A stretch of DNA of 28,569 nt. Source: a virus. A program made the position numbers and the translations under genes. The notes under the pieces were generated by a model. That model was not told where the DNA came from. It saw nothing but the letters and a program-made list of their open reading frames with translations, and did no database searches. Positions 363 to 28,569 of the stretch are shown piece by piece (the stretch's first letter is position 1; each line of letters starts with the position of its first letter). The stretch lies in the UHGV virus genome UHGV-0000020; one strand, written 5' to 3'.

Positions 363-391
363 AAAAAAACCTGCCGAAGCAGGTCTTTTTT
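363..391 (-). terminator. Rho-independent terminator downstream of ogr (bidirectional hairpin)
   Basis: A-run, hairpin CCTGC-CGAA-GCAGG (370-383), then T-run; on the minus strand it reads hairpin followed by U-tract immediately after the ogr stop. Confidence 0.7.
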
Positions 392-608
392 ATAGCCACA
401 GTTGATGCTGGGCGTATTTATTCGGATGGGGTGGGGCCGGGTCAATTTCTCCGGGTTTTACAATATATCTTGCCAACGCCTCATGAGTGACAAATGTACA
501 TCCGCAGTTGATGTTTTGACACTGGTGATATCGTTCTTTGGTTTCTGTACTGAGGTAGCGACTTGATCTCGCGTGAGCTGCATCTTGGCATAACGGGCAG
601 TGCATCAT
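390..608 (-). CDS. ogr: Late-gene transcription activator Ogr (zinc-finger)
   Basis: 72 aa from ATG at 608 (MHCPLCQDAAHARSSRY...YHQCQNINCGCTF...), Cys4 motif and length typical of P2 Ogr; GGGGGA Shine-Dalgarno 7 nt upstream. The track ORF starting at 641 is an upstream in-frame extension. Confidence 0.9.
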   Translation of the reverse strand: MMHCPLCQDAAHARSSRYLSTETKERYHQCQNINCGCTFVTHEALARYIVKPGEIDPAPPHPNKYAQHQLWL

Positions 609-20848: not shown

Positions 20849-21079
20849 TTAACGCCAGCTTTCGTCTTCCCAGACTTCCTGAAGGATACTATCCAGCGCT
20901 TCCCTGTCTGAATCTTTGTCGACCCCCATCAACTCGACGCCAGTCATTGAGCCTTTTTTTACCGTGACGCGCGTCGACGGAAAAACTGACTGAATTCTTC
21001 GGGTCAATTCACTTTGAAATGCATCAATGACTGGCTGCCCGATTTTCTGGTCTTTGTCTAACGTGATATTGATATTCAT
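20849..21079 (-). CDS. DinI-family protein
   Basis: 76 aa MNINITLDKDQKIGQPVIDAFQSELTRRIQSVFP...ALDSILQEVWEDESWR aligns along its length with E. coli DinI (ELSRRIQ, FP, ILQETWE motifs). Confidence 0.85.
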   Translation of the reverse strand: MNINITLDKDQKIGQPVIDAFQSELTRRIQSVFPSTRVTVKKGSMTGVELMGVDKDSDREALDSILQEVWEDESWR

Positions 21080-21082
21080 AAC

Positions 21083-21265
21083 CTACTCAGCCTCATAAAA
21101 GAAATCTTCTTCGGTCTCGTTATTTTCGCTATTTGCAAGATCGGCAATGAGAGTGAGCGCGAGCTTTAAGTCTGCTGGTTTGCAGTTCGCTATCAGAGAT
21201 ACCTCGGCTATGAATTGCACACAAGCCCACTTTTGCTGCGTTCGGCTGAAATGTTCCCCAACCAT
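21083..21265 (-). CDS. Hypothetical acidic 60-aa protein, first ORF of LexA-controlled operon
   Basis: ATG at 21265 with GGGAGGG Shine-Dalgarno immediately downstream of the LexA box; ends ...ENNETEEDFFYEAE-TAG; in frame with the DinI-like ORF, separated only by TAG plus one codon. The longer track ORF starts at a GTG upstream of the LexA box. Confidence 0.55.
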   Translation of the reverse strand: MVGEHFSRTQQKWACVQFIAEVSLIANCKPADLKLALTLIADLANSENNETEEDFFYEAE

Positions 21266-21285: not shown

Positions 21286-21305
21286 TACTGTATAAATATA
21301 CAGTA
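21286..21305. promoter_or_regulatory. LexA (SOS) box
   Basis: TACTGTATAAATATACAGTA, a 19/20 match to the TACTGTATATATATACAGTA consensus (CTGT-N8-ACAG), 20 nt upstream of the 60-aa ORF start and next to a TTGCCA -35-like hexamer. Confidence 0.8.
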
Positions 21306-25194: not shown

Positions 25195-25704
25195 TCACAC
25201 CAAACCGAACGTTGCGCCAATGCCAGTCATGGTATCGACAACACTCGACATTGCCGGGTTGGACTGAAGCCGAGCATGTAACGCCAGTGCAGACAGTGAC
25301 AGCATGCGAATACCAGAATTAACGCTTTCGACCATGCTGTGCTTACGGTCAGAGGTCAGACGTTCAGTCGATACAGCACCGGTTGCCAGCTCGCCAAGTT
25401 CACTCATTGCACGCATGACATAGGTCTGAAGTTTGTCTTTTGCTAACTCATTCACTGGCACACAAGGAAGACAATGAATCTGAGCGAGAAAGCCATCAAC
25501 GAGGGTTGAGTCTTCAGTCAGGTCAGTCAGTAGCCACAATTCAGGCGGTGTGAACTGGTGAGGCTGTTCCGGGTTGAGCTTGTTACGTAACGTTTGAACG
25601 TTCATACCCGCACGCTCGGCCAGCTTCGCCATGTTGTGACGCTGCGCAAAGGCCCGACATGCTTCGTCGAAGTGGGGATGTTTGGAAACCTGAAAATCAA
25701 ACAT
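25195..25704 (-). CDS. B: Replication protein B-like (start 25704 or 25728)
   Basis: About 169 aa (MFDFQVSKHPHFDEACRAFAQRHNMAKLAERAGMNVQTLRNKLNPEQPHQFTPPELWLLTDL...), at the P2 B position in the early operon upstream of A; GGAG Shine-Dalgarno before ATG 25704. Confidence 0.65.
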   Translation of the reverse strand: MFDFQVSKHPHFDEACRAFAQRHNMAKLAERAGMNVQTLRNKLNPEQPHQFTPPELWLLTDLTEDSTLVDGFLAQIHCLPCVPVNELAKDKLQTYVMRAMSELGELATGAVSTERLTSDRKHSMVESVNSGIRMLSLSALALHARLQSNPAMSSVVDTMTGIGATFGLV

Positions 25705-25736
25705 GTTGAAATCTCCGTCAACTTGCATAATCAAGT

Positions 25737-26102
25737 TCAGTTAAGCGCCTGGGTGTCGGCGGGGATATAACGACAATCGATAGCTTGCTGCGTCAATTTG
25801 TCGCGCCATGCTTTGACGTTGACTAATGTGCGGCCGCGTTTATTGGCCTCTTCTTTGTTTGAGAAATCTTTGGTTGGAGCCTTGAGTAATATGCCTTTGT
25901 CGAGCCATTGCCACACAAGGCGCTCGCTGATTCCACGGGTTGCCGCGAAGTCTTCGACTGTCATAGTGTCTGACATAGCGGAGCGAATCAGGCTTTCCAT
26001 TTTTGGCAGCATTGCATCAACGATGGCCGCTAGCTGAGCGGGTTCTAAACGTAAAGTTTGATTTTGTGAGTTATCAAGCGATGTTGATTTTGCATCTGAC
26101 AT
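25737..26102 (-). CDS. First early-operon gene: putative Cox/Apl-like HTH regulator or excisionase
   Basis: 121 aa ORF immediately downstream of the candidate lytic promoter, with a helix-turn-helix-like segment MTVEDFAATRGISERLVWQWLDKGILL; occupies the cox/apl position. Functional call is by position and motif only. Confidence 0.45.
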   Translation of the reverse strand: MSDAKSTSLDNSQNQTLRLEPAQLAAIVDAMLPKMESLIRSAMSDTMTVEDFAATRGISERLVWQWLDKGILLKAPTKDFSNKEEANKRGRTLVNVKAWRDKLTQQAIDCRYIPADTQALN

Positions 26103-26164
26103 ATCGCATTATCTCCTGTTGTGTGAAATGTGGTGCAGTGGTGTGCATCTTGGTCGATGAACGC

Positions 26165-26194
26165 CACTATAGATCGTAAAAAGTTATCTGTAAA
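26165..26194 (-). promoter_or_regulatory. Candidate early (lytic) sigma70 promoter
   Basis: Minus strand reads TTTACA (26194-26189), a 17-nt spacer, then TATAGT (26170-26165), about 60 nt upstream of the first early ORF; both hexamers overlap the operator-like repeats. Confidence 0.5.
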
Positions 26195-26215
26195 CACCCA
26201 TAAAGTTATCTATAG
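26167..26215. promoter_or_regulatory. Operator-like repeat cluster between divergent early and repressor genes
   Basis: Direct repeat AAAGTTATCT at 26180-26189 and 26202-26211 (22-bp spacing) and palindromic CTATAG hexamers at 26167-26172 and 26210-26215 (CTATAGAT / ATCTATAG arms). Confidence 0.5.
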
Positions 26216-26223
26216 AGGTTTTT

Positions 26224-27087
26224 ATGAGTTCTGGGCTTGATGTTCAGTGGCGCATCGGTGCGGCAAATGGAGTTTTAGAGCGCTTGATGTCTGCGTATGG
26301 CGTGAAGATGCAGAAAGATTTGGCTGACCTGCTGGGGATTGCAAAACATAGCGTGAGTGGTTGGGTTCAGCGCGATGCGATACCGGGCAATATCATCGTG
26401 AGATGCTGTCTCGATACTGGCGCTGATATCAACTGGCTTGTAAATGGTGAACTTGCAAATGCAAACCTCGATCTCCAGCATAGTCGTTTGAAAGGCAAAG
26501 AACTCTATGACGAAATAATGACTAACGGTGGTAAAACCGTATTACGCCGTATTTTGGATGCGTATGGTTTTACGATGCAAAAAGAACTTGGTGATTTGCT
26601 AGGCATTTCCTCTGGCACCATCAGCACTTGGGTTCGTCGAGAGTTCTTTCCGGGGGATGTAGTAGTCGCCTGTGCACTTGATACCGGAGTTTCCCTTGAG
26701 TGGTTGGCTACTGGCAAAGGGCAAATGCTGGATAGTTCATCGAGAAAAAATGCTATTCAGCAAGTAATAAAAAAATGTCGATTAGAAGCCGGAGAACTCA
26801 AAGATGCAGGTGAGTGGCATCCTGACCCTTCAATGGTTCCCGACGCTCACGACAAGCTCATTTATATAGTTGGTGTTACATCATCTTGGTTAATAGATAA
26901 AGCAGTGCTGAATGTATCTAATGGCAGATGGCTCATAAGCATTGATGGTGCTTTTGACGTTTTCGACGTGATTCGATTACCAGGCGGCAAGGTTCGCCTA
27001 TCAAATAAAAATGCAGAATTTGAATGTAATCTTGCAGATATCACACCAGCCGGGGCTGTTATTTTTACCTTGGAAAAACACATATAA
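26224..27087 (+). CDS. cI: Immunity repressor, 186 CI-type, with tandemly duplicated N-terminal DNA-binding domain
   Basis: 287 aa; two homologous about 65-aa repeats (residues ~13-75 and ~103-166; LERLMSAYGVKMQKDLADLLGI...SGWVQRDAIPG...CCLDTGADINWL vs LRRILDAYGFTMQKELGDLLGI...STWVRREFFPG...CALDTGVSLEWL) resembling the phage 186 CI N-terminal domain, plus a C-terminal domain; divergent from the early operon. Confidence 0.75.
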   Translation: MSSGLDVQWRIGAANGVLERLMSAYGVKMQKDLADLLGIAKHSVSGWVQRDAIPGNIIVRCCLDTGADINWLVNGELANANLDLQHSRLKGKELYDEIMTNGGKTVLRRILDAYGFTMQKELGDLLGISSGTISTWVRREFFPGDVVVACALDTGVSLEWLATGKGQMLDSSSRKNAIQQVIKKCRLEAGELKDAGEWHPDPSMVPDAHDKLIYIVGVTSSWLIDKAVLNVSNGRWLISIDGAFDVFDVIRLPGGKVRLSNKNAEFECNLADITPAGAVIFTLEKHI

Positions 27088-27095
27088 GGATAGTT

Positions 27096-27488
27096 ATGAA
27101 ACGTTCTATTTTTGCAGTTGCTTTGCTCGCTTCTTTCTCAGTATTTGCACAGCCATCTAATTTATCTGTTCTGAAAAAATCGATGAATGAGATGCAACCA
27201 ATTTCAATTGAGGAAAGTGATAGCACCGTTGTGATTGTGCTCAACACCGCAAGCGTTACGCCAGAAATCTACGACACTGCCATTTTAGGTATCTGCAACC
27301 CCGTTTGGTTGAATAAAGAAAACACGGCATACCTTAAAAATACTAAAGAAGTACATGTGCTGAATAAATTTAGTGCCATCGGATATGCACTTGAGAAGCC
27401 ACGCGCGACATGTGAAAAGGCAGGCCAAGAACAACCAAAACAATCCCAAATTACAATTCTTTCAAACACTCATACTCTTAGTCTGTAG
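27096..27488 (+). CDS. Secreted or periplasmic protein of unknown function (moron)
   Basis: 130 aa with Sec-type signal peptide MKRSIFAVALLASFSVFA and likely cleavage before QPS; AAGGA Shine-Dalgarno; 8 nt after the cI stop and upstream of int; AT-rich. Confidence 0.7.
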   Translation: MKRSIFAVALLASFSVFAQPSNLSVLKKSMNEMQPISIEESDSTVVIVLNTASVTPEIYDTAILGICNPVWLNKENTAYLKNTKEVHVLNKFSAIGYALEKPRATCEKAGQEQPKQSQITILSNTHTLSL

Positions 27489-27519
27489 CACGTAAATCAT
27501 CATATAGCCTCGGTGTATT

Positions 27520-28569
27520 ATGACTGTAAGCAAACAAAAAAACGGCAAATGGTTATGTGAGCTCTATCCAAACGGTCGGGAAGGGCGGCGTATACGTCGA
27601 CACTTCAACACCAAAGGTGAGGCCGAGGCTTTTGAGCTTTACACAAAAAATGAAAGTGAAGACAAGCCGTGGCTCGGAAAGAAAGAAGACCGACGGCGTT
27701 TAAGTGAAATTATTCAGCTTTGGCATAATTTACACGGACAGGCTCTAGTCGCGAGCAAATCAAGATTGGCTAAATTGCAGATTGTGTGTAATGGCCTTGG
27801 CGACCCTATCGCATCCCGTCTCACAGCTAAGGATTGGGCTCACTATCGTGATAAACGGCTTCGTGGTGAAATTGATAATGGGTATCACAAAGACCCTGAG
27901 AAATGGATAGCTAAACCGATTACGGTCAACCGTGAACAGCAGTATTTAGAGGCCGTTTTCAATGAGCTAAAGCGGTTAGGGGAATGGTCGCTACCAAACC
28001 CTCTCGATGGCATTCGCGTCTTTAAAGAAGCTGAAAAGGAAATGTCATGGCTAACGATCGAGCAAATACCTCAACTTTTACAGGCATGTCATCAGTATGG
28101 ACACGAAGACCTTACACAGATTGTTGAGATTTGTTTAGCTACCGGCGCGAGATGGAGTGAGGCAGAGCGATTGACTCGTCCGCAGCTTTCGCCCTACAAA
28201 CTGACTTTCACAAAAACGAAAGGCAAAAAAAATCGTACAGTCCCGATCACAAAATGGCTTTACGAAAAATTATCCACACGACAGGGGCGAATGTTTAAGC
28301 CTTGCTATCAGGAGTTCAAAAAAATGCTTTTGCTCACTGATATCGAACTGACGGAAGGCCAGAAAACCCATGTTTTACGCCACACCTTTGGTGCGCATTT
28401 TATGATGAACGGCGGTAACATCCTTGTTCTTCAGAAGATACTTGGTCACGCTAACATTCGTGAAACAATGAAGTATTCGCACTTTGCACCAGACCATCTT
28501 GAGCAGGCTGTTACATTGAATCCCTTGTCGTTAGCTATTGGCGACAAAGTGGCGACAGAGGTTGCGTAA
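27520..28569 (+). CDS. int: Tyrosine integrase (P2 Int family)
   Basis: 349 aa; N-terminal GREGRRIRRHFNTKGEAEAFE arm-binding-like domain and C-terminal catalytic motifs ...LATGARWSEAERL... HVLRHTFGAHFMMNGG...LGHANIRETMKYSHF; TAA at 28567-28569. Confidence 0.92.
   Translation: MTVSKQKNGKWLCELYPNGREGRRIRRHFNTKGEAEAFELYTKNESEDKPWLGKKEDRRRLSEIIQLWHNLHGQALVASKSRLAKLQIVCNGLGDPIASRLTAKDWAHYRDKRLRGEIDNGYHKDPEKWIAKPITVNREQQYLEAVFNELKRLGEWSLPNPLDGIRVFKEAEKEMSWLTIEQIPQLLQACHQYGHEDLTQIVEICLATGARWSEAERLTRPQLSPYKLTFTKTKGKKNRTVPITKWLYEKLSTRQGRMFKPCYQEFKKMLLLTDIELTEGQKTHVLRHTFGAHFMMNGGNILVLQKILGHANIRETMKYSHFAPDHLEQAVTLNPLSLAIGDKVATEVA

Follow-up and report, generated by a model that had tools for sequence, protein, structure and literature searches.

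Repressors of P2- and 186-like phages

The CI repressor of coliphage 186, a chain of 192 amino acids with one N-terminal DNA-binding domain (NTD) and a C-terminal domain (structures 2FJR and 2FKD), assembles into a 14-mer wheel whose dimers bind inverted-repeat operators, and this wheel is the textbook alternative to the lambda switch. The operators of 186 are phased two helical turns apart (PMC3675496), and the repressor is inactivated by the LexA-controlled antirepressor Tum rather than by self-cleavage. In phage PSP3, tum is split, and its upstream half encodes the antirepressor (PMC3121763). The immunity repressor C of phage P2 belongs to another family and is a single-domain homodimer of 99-amino-acid chains without sequence similarity to CI (PMC2995052, PMC3448106). 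Its operators are non-palindromic direct repeats that flank a promoter hexamer with an O1-O2 spacing of 22 bp, and a pair of helix-turn-helix (HTH) heads is believed to occupy each repeat, with specific contacts made by one head only (PMC2995052). Here, we analyze the cI immunity repressor gene of the virus genome UHGV-0000020, a stretch of 28,569 nucleotides that is referred to in its full length as the window. The window is a P2/186-like prophage of the PSP3 type (genus Eganvirus, 186-like) that is integrated next to rplS, and its CI carries two NTDs in tandem. While only the single-domain protein of this kind has been studied, a second HTH domain is present in a large and widespread subgroup, to which PSP3 and many prophages of Klebsiella, Enterobacter, Salmonella and E. 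coli belong.

With 186 CI, the window protein shares the families PF07022 and PF16452, the fold of the C-terminal domain and the position in the genetic switch. In both cases the operators, predicted ones in the window, lie between the cI ATG and the -10 hexamer of the early lytic promoter pR with a two-turn phasing. The window also encodes a putative LexA-controlled antirepressor (LexA box, tumA, dinI-like gene), by which its CI may be inactivated in the way of 186 CI. The window differs from 186 by the extra N-terminal HTH domain, by direct non-palindromic instead of inverted repeats, and by two clear repeats instead of three sites. Hence, the 186 rule of one DNA-binding domain per chain of about 190 amino acids does not extend to the window CI with its two domains in 287 amino acids. 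P2 C resembles the window CI as the immunity repressor of a P2-like phage with non-palindromic direct repeats, putative operators in the window, 22 bp apart around a promoter hexamer, but the heads of the window CI are covalently linked and non-identical. Both the length of 287 amino acids and the curated Pfam matches, which are the CI families, place the window protein outside the P2 C family, so that the comparison with P2 C drawn in the first-pass annotation of this locus holds only loosely.

The best-matching described proteins are the CI repressors of PSP3 (AAN08403.1, orf29 'immunity repressor'), SEN1, SW9/SI22, Midge, RCIP0057 and vB_EcoM-613R3, which are 69-81% identical to the window CI over their full length (PSP3 80.6%) and have the same layout of two NTDs and a C-terminal domain. 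PSP3-type phages also share with the window the order cII, gp30-type apl analogue, cI, small gene and int, a predicted pR, and the split tumA/dinI. The recognition helix of NTD1 in PSP3 is identical to that of the window, and the two phages thus probably have the same immunity. The operator repeats agree with each other at 7/10 positions in PSP3 and at 10/10 in the window.

Tandem DNA-binding domains of the window CI

The gene and the modules of its product are located as follows:

26224..27087, plus strand: cI immunity repressor gene, stop codon included (open reading frame list; PF07022 twice and PF16452; PSP3 CI 80.6% identical)
26272..26454, plus strand: NTD1, first Phage_CI_repr HTH domain, residues 17-77 (Pfam, BLASTP, AlphaFold2)
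26455..26526, plus strand: inter-domain linker, residues 78-91, followed by helix 92-100 and a GGK motif ahead of NTD2 (AlphaFold2, alignment)
26527..26721, plus strand: NTD2, second Phage_CI_repr HTH domain, residues 102-166 (Pfam, BLASTP, 2fjr alignment, AlphaFold2)
26767..27075, plus strand: 186-type C-terminal (oligomerization) domain, residues 182-284 (PF16452, 2fkd_A)

The reading frame begins with an ATG that is preceded at 6 nt by the ribosome-binding site AGAGG, and encodes 287 amino acids. An E. coli protein that is 97% identical to its product carries the name 'phage repressor protein CI'. Pfam recognizes PF07022 (Phage_CI_repr) in two stretches with an overall expectation value (E) of 9.9e-52, as well as PF16452 (Phage_CI_C) at residues 182-278 (E 4e-19). 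When the two N-terminal halves are aligned with each other by BLASTP, residues 17-76 match residues 106-165 with 30/60 identities (50%, E 2e-24). The structure of 186 CI (2fjr) aligns to residues 105-280 (E 2e-19), i.e. to NTD2 and the C-terminal domain, over which the two repressors are about 31% identical. NTD2 is therefore the positional equivalent of the sole NTD in 186 CI and in all single-domain representatives. Single-domain CI proteins have a GGK/GGQ motif ahead of helix 1 as well. In NTD1, the HTH is formed by helices 30-37 and 41-49 with the recognition helix AKHSVSGWVQR, and in NTD2 by helices 119-126 and 130-138 with the recognition helix SSGTISTWVRR; these two helices differ at 7/11 positions.

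An AlphaFold2 monomer model of the full protein (47-sequence alignment, mean predicted local distance difference test score (pLDDT) 77.6, predicted template modeling score (pTM) 0.52) has two five-helix domains (helices 17-74 and 102-163), an additional helix 92-100, and a beta-rich C-terminal domain that Foldseek places on 2fkd_A with a template modeling (TM) score of 0.87 and a root-mean-square deviation of 1.9 A. The linkers at residues 78-87 (pLDDT <50) and 170-177 are of low confidence, while helix 92-100 is conserved (LKGKxLYDEIM) and G91, Y95, G102 and G103 are invariant in the alignment. No defined packing of NTD1 against NTD2 was obtained, either for the full protein or for residues 1-178 (pTM 0.43), and this lack of a fixed arrangement in the model is consistent with a flexible tether. 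CI thus consists of three folded modules, NTD1, NTD2 and the 186-type C-terminal domain, on flexible linkers.

The first-pass annotation had described an immunity repressor of 287 amino acids with two homologous N-terminal repeats of the CI type and a C-terminal domain, had contrasted it with 186 CI and its one such domain, and had mentioned direct repeats in the adjacent operator region, all of which is borne out by the domain matches, the likeness to PSP3 CI and the repeats described below. The structure prediction that it had proposed as a check yielded the two five-helix HTH domains, but no fixed packing between them. A fusion artefact of two genes, which had been named as an objection, is ruled out, as a frame of 278-290 amino acids is found without interruption both in phage isolates (PSP3, SEN1, SW9/SI22, Midge and RCIP0057) and in over 100 protein clusters at 90% identity.

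Repeats at the pR promoter

cI and the lytic operon (apl analogue, cII and onward) face each other across a switch region of 121 bp, for which the following elements are predicted:

26166..26194, minus strand: predicted pR, early lytic promoter toward the apl analogue and cII (-35 TTTACA at 26194-26189, 17-nt spacer, -10 TATAGT at 26171-26166)
26180..26192, plus strand: operator repeat 1, a putative operator, AAAGTTATCTGTA, inside the pR spacer and abutting the -35
26202..26214, plus strand: operator repeat 2, a putative operator, AAAGTTATCTATA, 8 nt upstream of the pR -35 and overlapping the cI ribosome-binding site
26084..26112, plus strand: tentative lysogenic promoter pL (TTGATT-17-CATTAT), facing pR (8/12 consensus match, under the scan threshold)

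In a scan of positions 25700-27600, pR was the only sigma-70-like site (10/12 consensus match). A predicted promoter of the type TTTACA-17-TATAGT/TATATT/TAAAGT is found at the same place in nearly all related loci, and its position relative to the cI ATG equals that in the annotated 186 record, in which three CI sites fill the 57 bp from the cI start codon to the pR -10. The tentative placement of pL follows the 186 record, in which pL is annotated where apl begins.

The direct repeat AAAGTTATCT occurs at 26180-26189 and 26202-26211, 22 bp apart, and brackets the pR -35. Over 13 bp, the two repeats are identical at 12/13 positions, and a repeat as good was found in only 1/200 shuffles of a 130-nt region. 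The consensus AAARTTWTCTRTA is retained in 13 distinct sequences of the window's immunity group (group A). Elsewhere in the window there are no further exact copies of AAAGTTATCT, and a search for FL/FR-like extra operators with AAAGTTATCT or AAARTTWTCTRTA returned only the two copies at pR, the other near-matches being at chance level. As read from the sequence, the 22-bp distance agrees with the two-turn phasing in 186 and with the O1-O2 spacing in P2, and thus corresponds to a spacing between operators and not between half-sites.

Adjacent to the repeats, the stretch 26060-26179 is the most conserved part of the switch across heteroimmune relatives (88-93% nucleotide identity, with synonymous sites elsewhere saturated). 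This stretch contains the pR -10, the putative pL, and the ribosome-binding site and first codons of the apl-analogue gene, and the conserved Apl analogue probably binds within it, by analogy with 186.

A variable NTD1 beside a near-invariant NTD2

PSP3-type CI proteins were compared across 31 genome loci, four phage loci and 62 viral contigs. Throughout this set, the NTD2 recognition helix is nearly invariant (xSSGTISTW[VI]RR), while that of NTD1 (helix 3) falls into at least ten groups, for example AKHSVSGWVQRD (window and PSP3), HANNVSSWLARN, YANNISSWLARD, PSNSVSTWVQRN and PANNISSWIQRD. The mean pairwise identity amounts to 0.63 for NTD1, which has 19 helix-3 variants in this comparison, 0.56 for the linker, 0.88 for NTD2 and 0.64 for the C-terminal domain, so that NTD2 has the highest value of any domain.

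The same division is seen at the nucleotide level. In comparison with the heteroimmune phages SI22 and Midge and the loci L007 and L010, the identity of 88-93% at 26060-26179 falls to 38-48% at 26180-26239, where the repeats are located, remains low through NTD1 and recovers over NTD2. With PSP3, which has the same NTD1 helix, no drop is observed at the repeats. The repeated or palindromic elements at these two positions of the conserved pR are specific to the NTD1 helix-3 group. The best-scoring elements are spaced by 21-23 bp in most, but not all, groups (18 bp in groups HANN and PANT).

Because synonymous sites have reached saturation in comparisons of the window with all relatives, including PSP3 (proportion of synonymous differences, pS, 0.7-0.9), pS and the proportion of nonsynonymous differences (pN) are reported here instead of dN/dS. 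Between the window and PSP3, NTD1 is 98% identical with a pN of 0.007 at a pS of 0.73 and is thus the best conserved part within the group; between groups, it is the most diverged, with a pN of 0.26-0.36. NTD2 has a pN of 0.04-0.07 versus every relative, and the C-terminal domain one of about 0.19-0.27. The low pN despite saturated pS indicates that both NTD1 and NTD2 are under strong purifying selection. This pattern suggests that NTD1 behaves as an immunity-specific reader that is locked to its operators, and that NTD2 behaves as a module with a group-independent task.

Additional clues to the capacity of NTD2 come from seven TumA-carrying contigs (IMG/VR L054, L109, L115 and L117-L120) that encode a CI of 192 amino acids whose sole NTD has the NTD2 helix SSGTISTW[VI]RR. 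The pR spacers of these single-domain sister phages contain one of two palindrome variants, ATCTCG-N6-CGAGAT or ATCTTA-N6-TAAGGT, and the sisters share TTGGATTTTnGCGATnACTCGGATTTTTAAG upstream of the -35. The former variant resembles an element ATCTC-N8-GAGAT that can be read within the annotated CI-binding region of 186 pR. Judging by the single-domain sisters, an NTD2-type domain can serve as the sole operator-binding domain, and NTD2 is probably still a DNA-binding domain in the tandem proteins as well.

A putative antirepressor and its possible link to NTD2

A plausible partner for the group-independent module is encoded to the left of cI by a split tum locus:

21083..21265, minus strand: tumA, putative SOS-controlled antirepressor of the window CI, 60 amino acids (92% identical to annotated PSP3 TumA)
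21288..21303, unstranded: LexA box CTGTATAAATATACAG upstream of tumA, a perfect CTGT-N8-ACAG
20849..21079, minus strand: DinI-like gene, downstream half of the split tum (PF06183, E 2e-18)

Exact CTGT-N8-ACAG sequences occur twice in the window, compared with 0.25 expected. TumA homologues were found in exactly the ten phage records with a PSP3-type CI. A CI gene lies within reach of tumA in 70 viral contigs; it encodes a tandem CI in 62 of these, the 192-amino-acid CI of the NTD2 type in seven and a 186-like CI in one, which means that an NTD2-type domain is present in 69/70 TumA-linked CI proteins. Between immunity groups, TumA is about as conserved as NTD2 (identity 0.87 and 0.86, respectively), compared with 0.53 for NTD1. 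Going by this co-occurrence, NTD2 may be the handle for TumA.

Proposed mode of action

Taken together, it is fairly probable from the sequence comparisons that CI shuts off pR at the two repeats with NTD1 as the reader of the immunity operators, and that NTD2 is an ancestral domain with a group-independent function. CI would occupy the two 13-bp repeats, which lie two helical turns apart and bracket the pR -35, with the C-terminal domain joining its protomers as it does in 186 CI. NTD1 would read the repeats and thereby set the immunity specificity. NTD2 would represent the ancestral DNA-binding domain, the sole one in 186 CI and in the single-domain sister phages, and would have been kept nearly unchanged across heteroimmune phages because of its group-independent function. 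This function would most likely consist of conserved or low-specificity DNA contacts beside the NTD1 site and/or of a surface recognized by TumA, and the LexA-controlled TumA would inactivate CI upon SOS induction.

More tentatively, one might envisage a full division of labor, in which an NTD1 cassette travels with its own pR operators and sets immunity, whereas NTD2 is frozen as the TumA handle and/or as the reader of conserved sites such as those at the promoter pB; in 186, one HTH domain would cover both jobs. If true, immunity could have diversified without loss of inducibility, and this would explain the at least three independent origins of the two-NTD layout among 186-type CI proteins. 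The contrast between a variable NTD1 with its operators and an invariant NTD2 with TumA opens the question of how a repressor partitions immunity specificity and inducibility. It also raises the questions of how a repressor that forms a wheel could employ 28 reading heads instead of 14, and of how cassette exchange could give rise to new types of immunity.

Several observations weigh against the assignment of operator reading to NTD1 and of a group-independent function to NTD2. The co-variation of NTD1 and operators could partly reflect a shared recombination block and not direct recognition. Several groups have a perfect palindrome in the pR spacer (AATCGCAAATGCGATT, ATCCATATGGAT, ACACGTAACGTGT), where the window has a non-palindromic direct repeat; hence, one binding geometry does not obviously fit all groups. 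No invariant DNA motif for NTD2 was found across the groups when 'GATCG' and 'ATCT' were considered: 'GATCG' beside the -10 is kept in most groups but belongs to the conserved flank, and some loci (L022, L031) lack it, and 'ATCT' is not conserved even in the window's own immunity group. With regard to TumA, the co-occurrence with CI is seen among closely related phages and may be plain linkage, and the one TumA locus with a 186-like single-domain CI (L114) indicates that TumA is not strictly tied to NTD2. Moreover, operators, promoters and the roles of the domains have all been derived by comparing sequences.

Alternative models of operator recognition

A rather unlikely alternative holds that each 13-bp repeat is a non-palindromic composite site for both HTH domains of one protomer, which would form a covalent pseudo-dimer or, like POU domains, sit tethered to each other on neighboring subsites. 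Two C-terminally joined protomers would then fill the two repeats, with NTD2 reading an invariant and NTD1 a variable sub-site. Such an arrangement would account for the asymmetry of the repeats, as expected of two different reading heads, and the flexible tether of 14-25 residues fits its geometry. In groups C and D, the units look like a constant ATCG with, 4-5 bp further on, a TGAGT or GCGAT that depends on the group, and units that resemble each other go together with NTD1 helices that do so, too (PSNSVSTWVQR and PANNISSWIQR). The single-domain sisters, in which an NTD2-type domain appears competent as the sole binder at ATCTCG-N6-CGAGAT, can be invoked as well. The window repeats contain ATCT. 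Yet, the A of this ATCT in repeat 1 varies within the window's immunity group (TTATC or TTTTC), groups B and B' are without ATC[GT] in the second unit, and no invariant sub-site common to all groups was found. The perfect palindromes of some groups argue for two equivalent heads instead.

Eukaryotic POU domains are an example of one polypeptide with two DNA-reading modules that jointly recognize an asymmetric site. A phage precedent is the monomeric immunity repressor of a mycobacteriophage, which is reported to read an asymmetric site with two domains of one polypeptide (PMC9283540). Both precedents have folds and domain combinations unrelated to those of CI and act as monomers, while the window CI has an oligomerization domain.

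It is less plausible still, and on balance improbable, that NTD2 has no role in binding the pR operators and is either a structural spacer or adaptor to the C-terminal domain or a reader of conserved sites elsewhere, e.g. at pB. The respective region of the window contains a gene for a late activator and a palindrome:

390..608, minus strand: Ogr/Delta-type late activator gene

A perfect 24-bp palindrome, AAATGCAAATCATGATTTGCATTT, lies at 655-678 between the D tail gene and the Ogr/Delta-type gene, and overlaps the -35 of a putative pB (TTGCAT-16-TATGAT) of the latter. In 186, two CI sites are annotated at pB, and these can be read as TTCAC-N5-GTGAA-type repeats that differ from the pR element ATCTC-N8-GAGAT. 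A paper cited in PMC3675496 announces by its title that the 186 HTH domain binds 'two distinct recognition sequences'. In PSP3, SI22 and Midge, the pB region is conserved across immunity groups and has GCAAAT repeats. This conserved region and the palindrome over the -35 of the window's putative pB count in favor of the model. However, the pB element of the window is arranged differently from that of these three phages even though NTD2 is about 94% identical, and the link between the palindrome arm TGATTTGCAT and GATTTTGCAT at 26086 in the pR region is not above chance. The conservation of NTD2 extends over its whole surface and not over helix 3 alone, which does not discriminate between the possible roles.

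Finally, the first-pass annotation had expected the linked pair of DNA-binding domains to recognize two adjacent half-sites as a monomer, in keeping with the direct repeats. NTD1 of a single chain would then sit on one of the repeats and NTD2 on the second at a distance of 22 bp. The match of two domains to two repeats and the physical reach of about 14 disordered residues plus a helix could be cited for this model, but it is very improbable, as the repeats are identical while the recognition helices differ at most positions, both repeats vary with NTD1 while NTD2 is invariant, 21-23 bp is the phasing between operators in 186 and, in P2, the distance between O1 and O2, and the two domains have no fixed packing in the model.

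Distribution and origin of the two-domain layout

A search for CI relatives among 5.8 billion proteins gave 932 matches. The best 120 of these are nearly all 278-290 amino acids long and are mostly named 'phage repressor protein CI'; their hosts include Klebsiella, Enterobacter, Salmonella, Escherichia, Citrobacter, Pantoea and Brenneria, among others. In Enterobacterales, the layout is common to more than 100 protein clusters at 90% identity. The survey of single versus duplicated domains that the first-pass annotation had called for was made with the best 150 representatives at 50% identity, of which 66 combine the C-terminal domain with a single NTD, 13 combine it with two, and one has three NTDs. 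Counting full-length representatives with a detectable C-terminal domain, 66/79 are of the one-NTD and 13/79 of the two-NTD type, i.e. about one sixth of the 186-type CI lineages are two-domain. The tandem architecture is real, widespread and visible to domain databases. Every single-domain representative aligns to residues ~100-285 of the window CI.

In a neighbor-joining tree and in identity tables, the NTD1s of the PSP3 clade form one group and the NTD2s another, and the latter are joined by single-domain proteins. The clade of Klebsiella phage 4LV2017 and a third clade acquired their second domain separately, from which it follows that the two-NTD layout arose at least three times. The CI of 4LV2017 (ARB15674.1, 313 amino acids) resembles the window CI in its two PF07022 domains, its C-terminal domain and its place in a P2-like switch, but is only 32% identical to it. 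Its NTDs are each nearer to different single-domain CI lineages, which points to an independent origin of its tandem layout. On average, NTD1 is 38% identical to the NTD2 clade and 32% to the single-domain NTDs in general. Its best matches reach about 0.42-0.48 in either set, and these tables do not separate in-situ duplication from acquisition.

Longer arrangements were also encountered. Five proteins of 323-1170 amino acids (P0249, P0211, P0237, P0253 and P0266) carry three to six Phage_CI_repr-like stretches, and at least one of the five is without a detectable CI C-terminal domain. HTH arrays thus exist beyond tandem pairs.

By its NTD1, its conserved linker helix, its NTD2 with xSSGTISTW[VI]RR, its C-terminal domain and its length within about 278-290 amino acids, and by the synteny with a gp30-type apl analogue and a split tumA/dinI, the window cI gene falls into the PSP3-type subgroup of the 186-type CI repressors and is ordinary within it. 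In the literature searched, whose coverage is incomplete and not proof of absence, there was no description of tandem HTH domains in the CI of PSP3 or other 186-type phages, and the sole paper found to comment on the length of PSP3 CI calls the extra part a "longer C-terminal domain". The tandem architecture of 186-type CI is thus apparently uncharacterized.

Prophage setting

The gene order of the window equals that of PSP3, gene for gene. On the minus strand to the left of cI follow the apl/cox analogue, a 186-type cII and the replication gene A, and on the plus strand to its right a gene for a secreted protein of 130 amino acids and the integrase gene:

25737..26102, minus strand: Apl/Cox analogue (PSP3 gp30 type), first gene of the lytic operon (PSP3 gp30 synteny; phrog_3554)
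25195..25734, minus strand: cII, 186-type activator of lysogeny establishment (PF06892 Phage_CP76, E 4e-47)
27520..28569, plus strand: integrase, last gene of the lysogenic operon cI-orf130-int (PF24624 and PF00589; PSP3 synteny)

The Apl/Cox analogue has a weak match to the Cox-like phrog_575 (E 1e-5), and the PSP3 gp30-type protein has been named a singleton Cox/Apl analogue (PMC3448106). The integrase reading frame is complete, its stop codon ending on the final base of the window. Between cI and int, the window has a gene (27096-27488, plus strand) for a protein of 130 amino acids with a signal-peptide-like N-terminus, which belongs to phrog_3807 and has no Pfam match, whereas a gene for a DUF2511 periplasmic protein occupies this slot in PSP3, SI22 and Midge. 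The slot looks like exchangeable cargo of the lysogenic operon.

Within the whole window, TGCAAATCA occurs in 22 copies with at most one mismatch, compared with 9.7 +/- 3.4 in shuffled sequences, and none of 100 shuffles reached 22. This excess may reflect codon or oligonucleotide bias or dispersed binding sites. Positions 1-360 are the prophage end. The window opens there in the 3' end of the host rplS, with 95-99% identity to E. coli, and continues with a terminator-like hairpin and three GGCGA repeats of the Int arm type. The junction of rplS and prophage is matched through by 85 of 5426 complete E. coli genomes.

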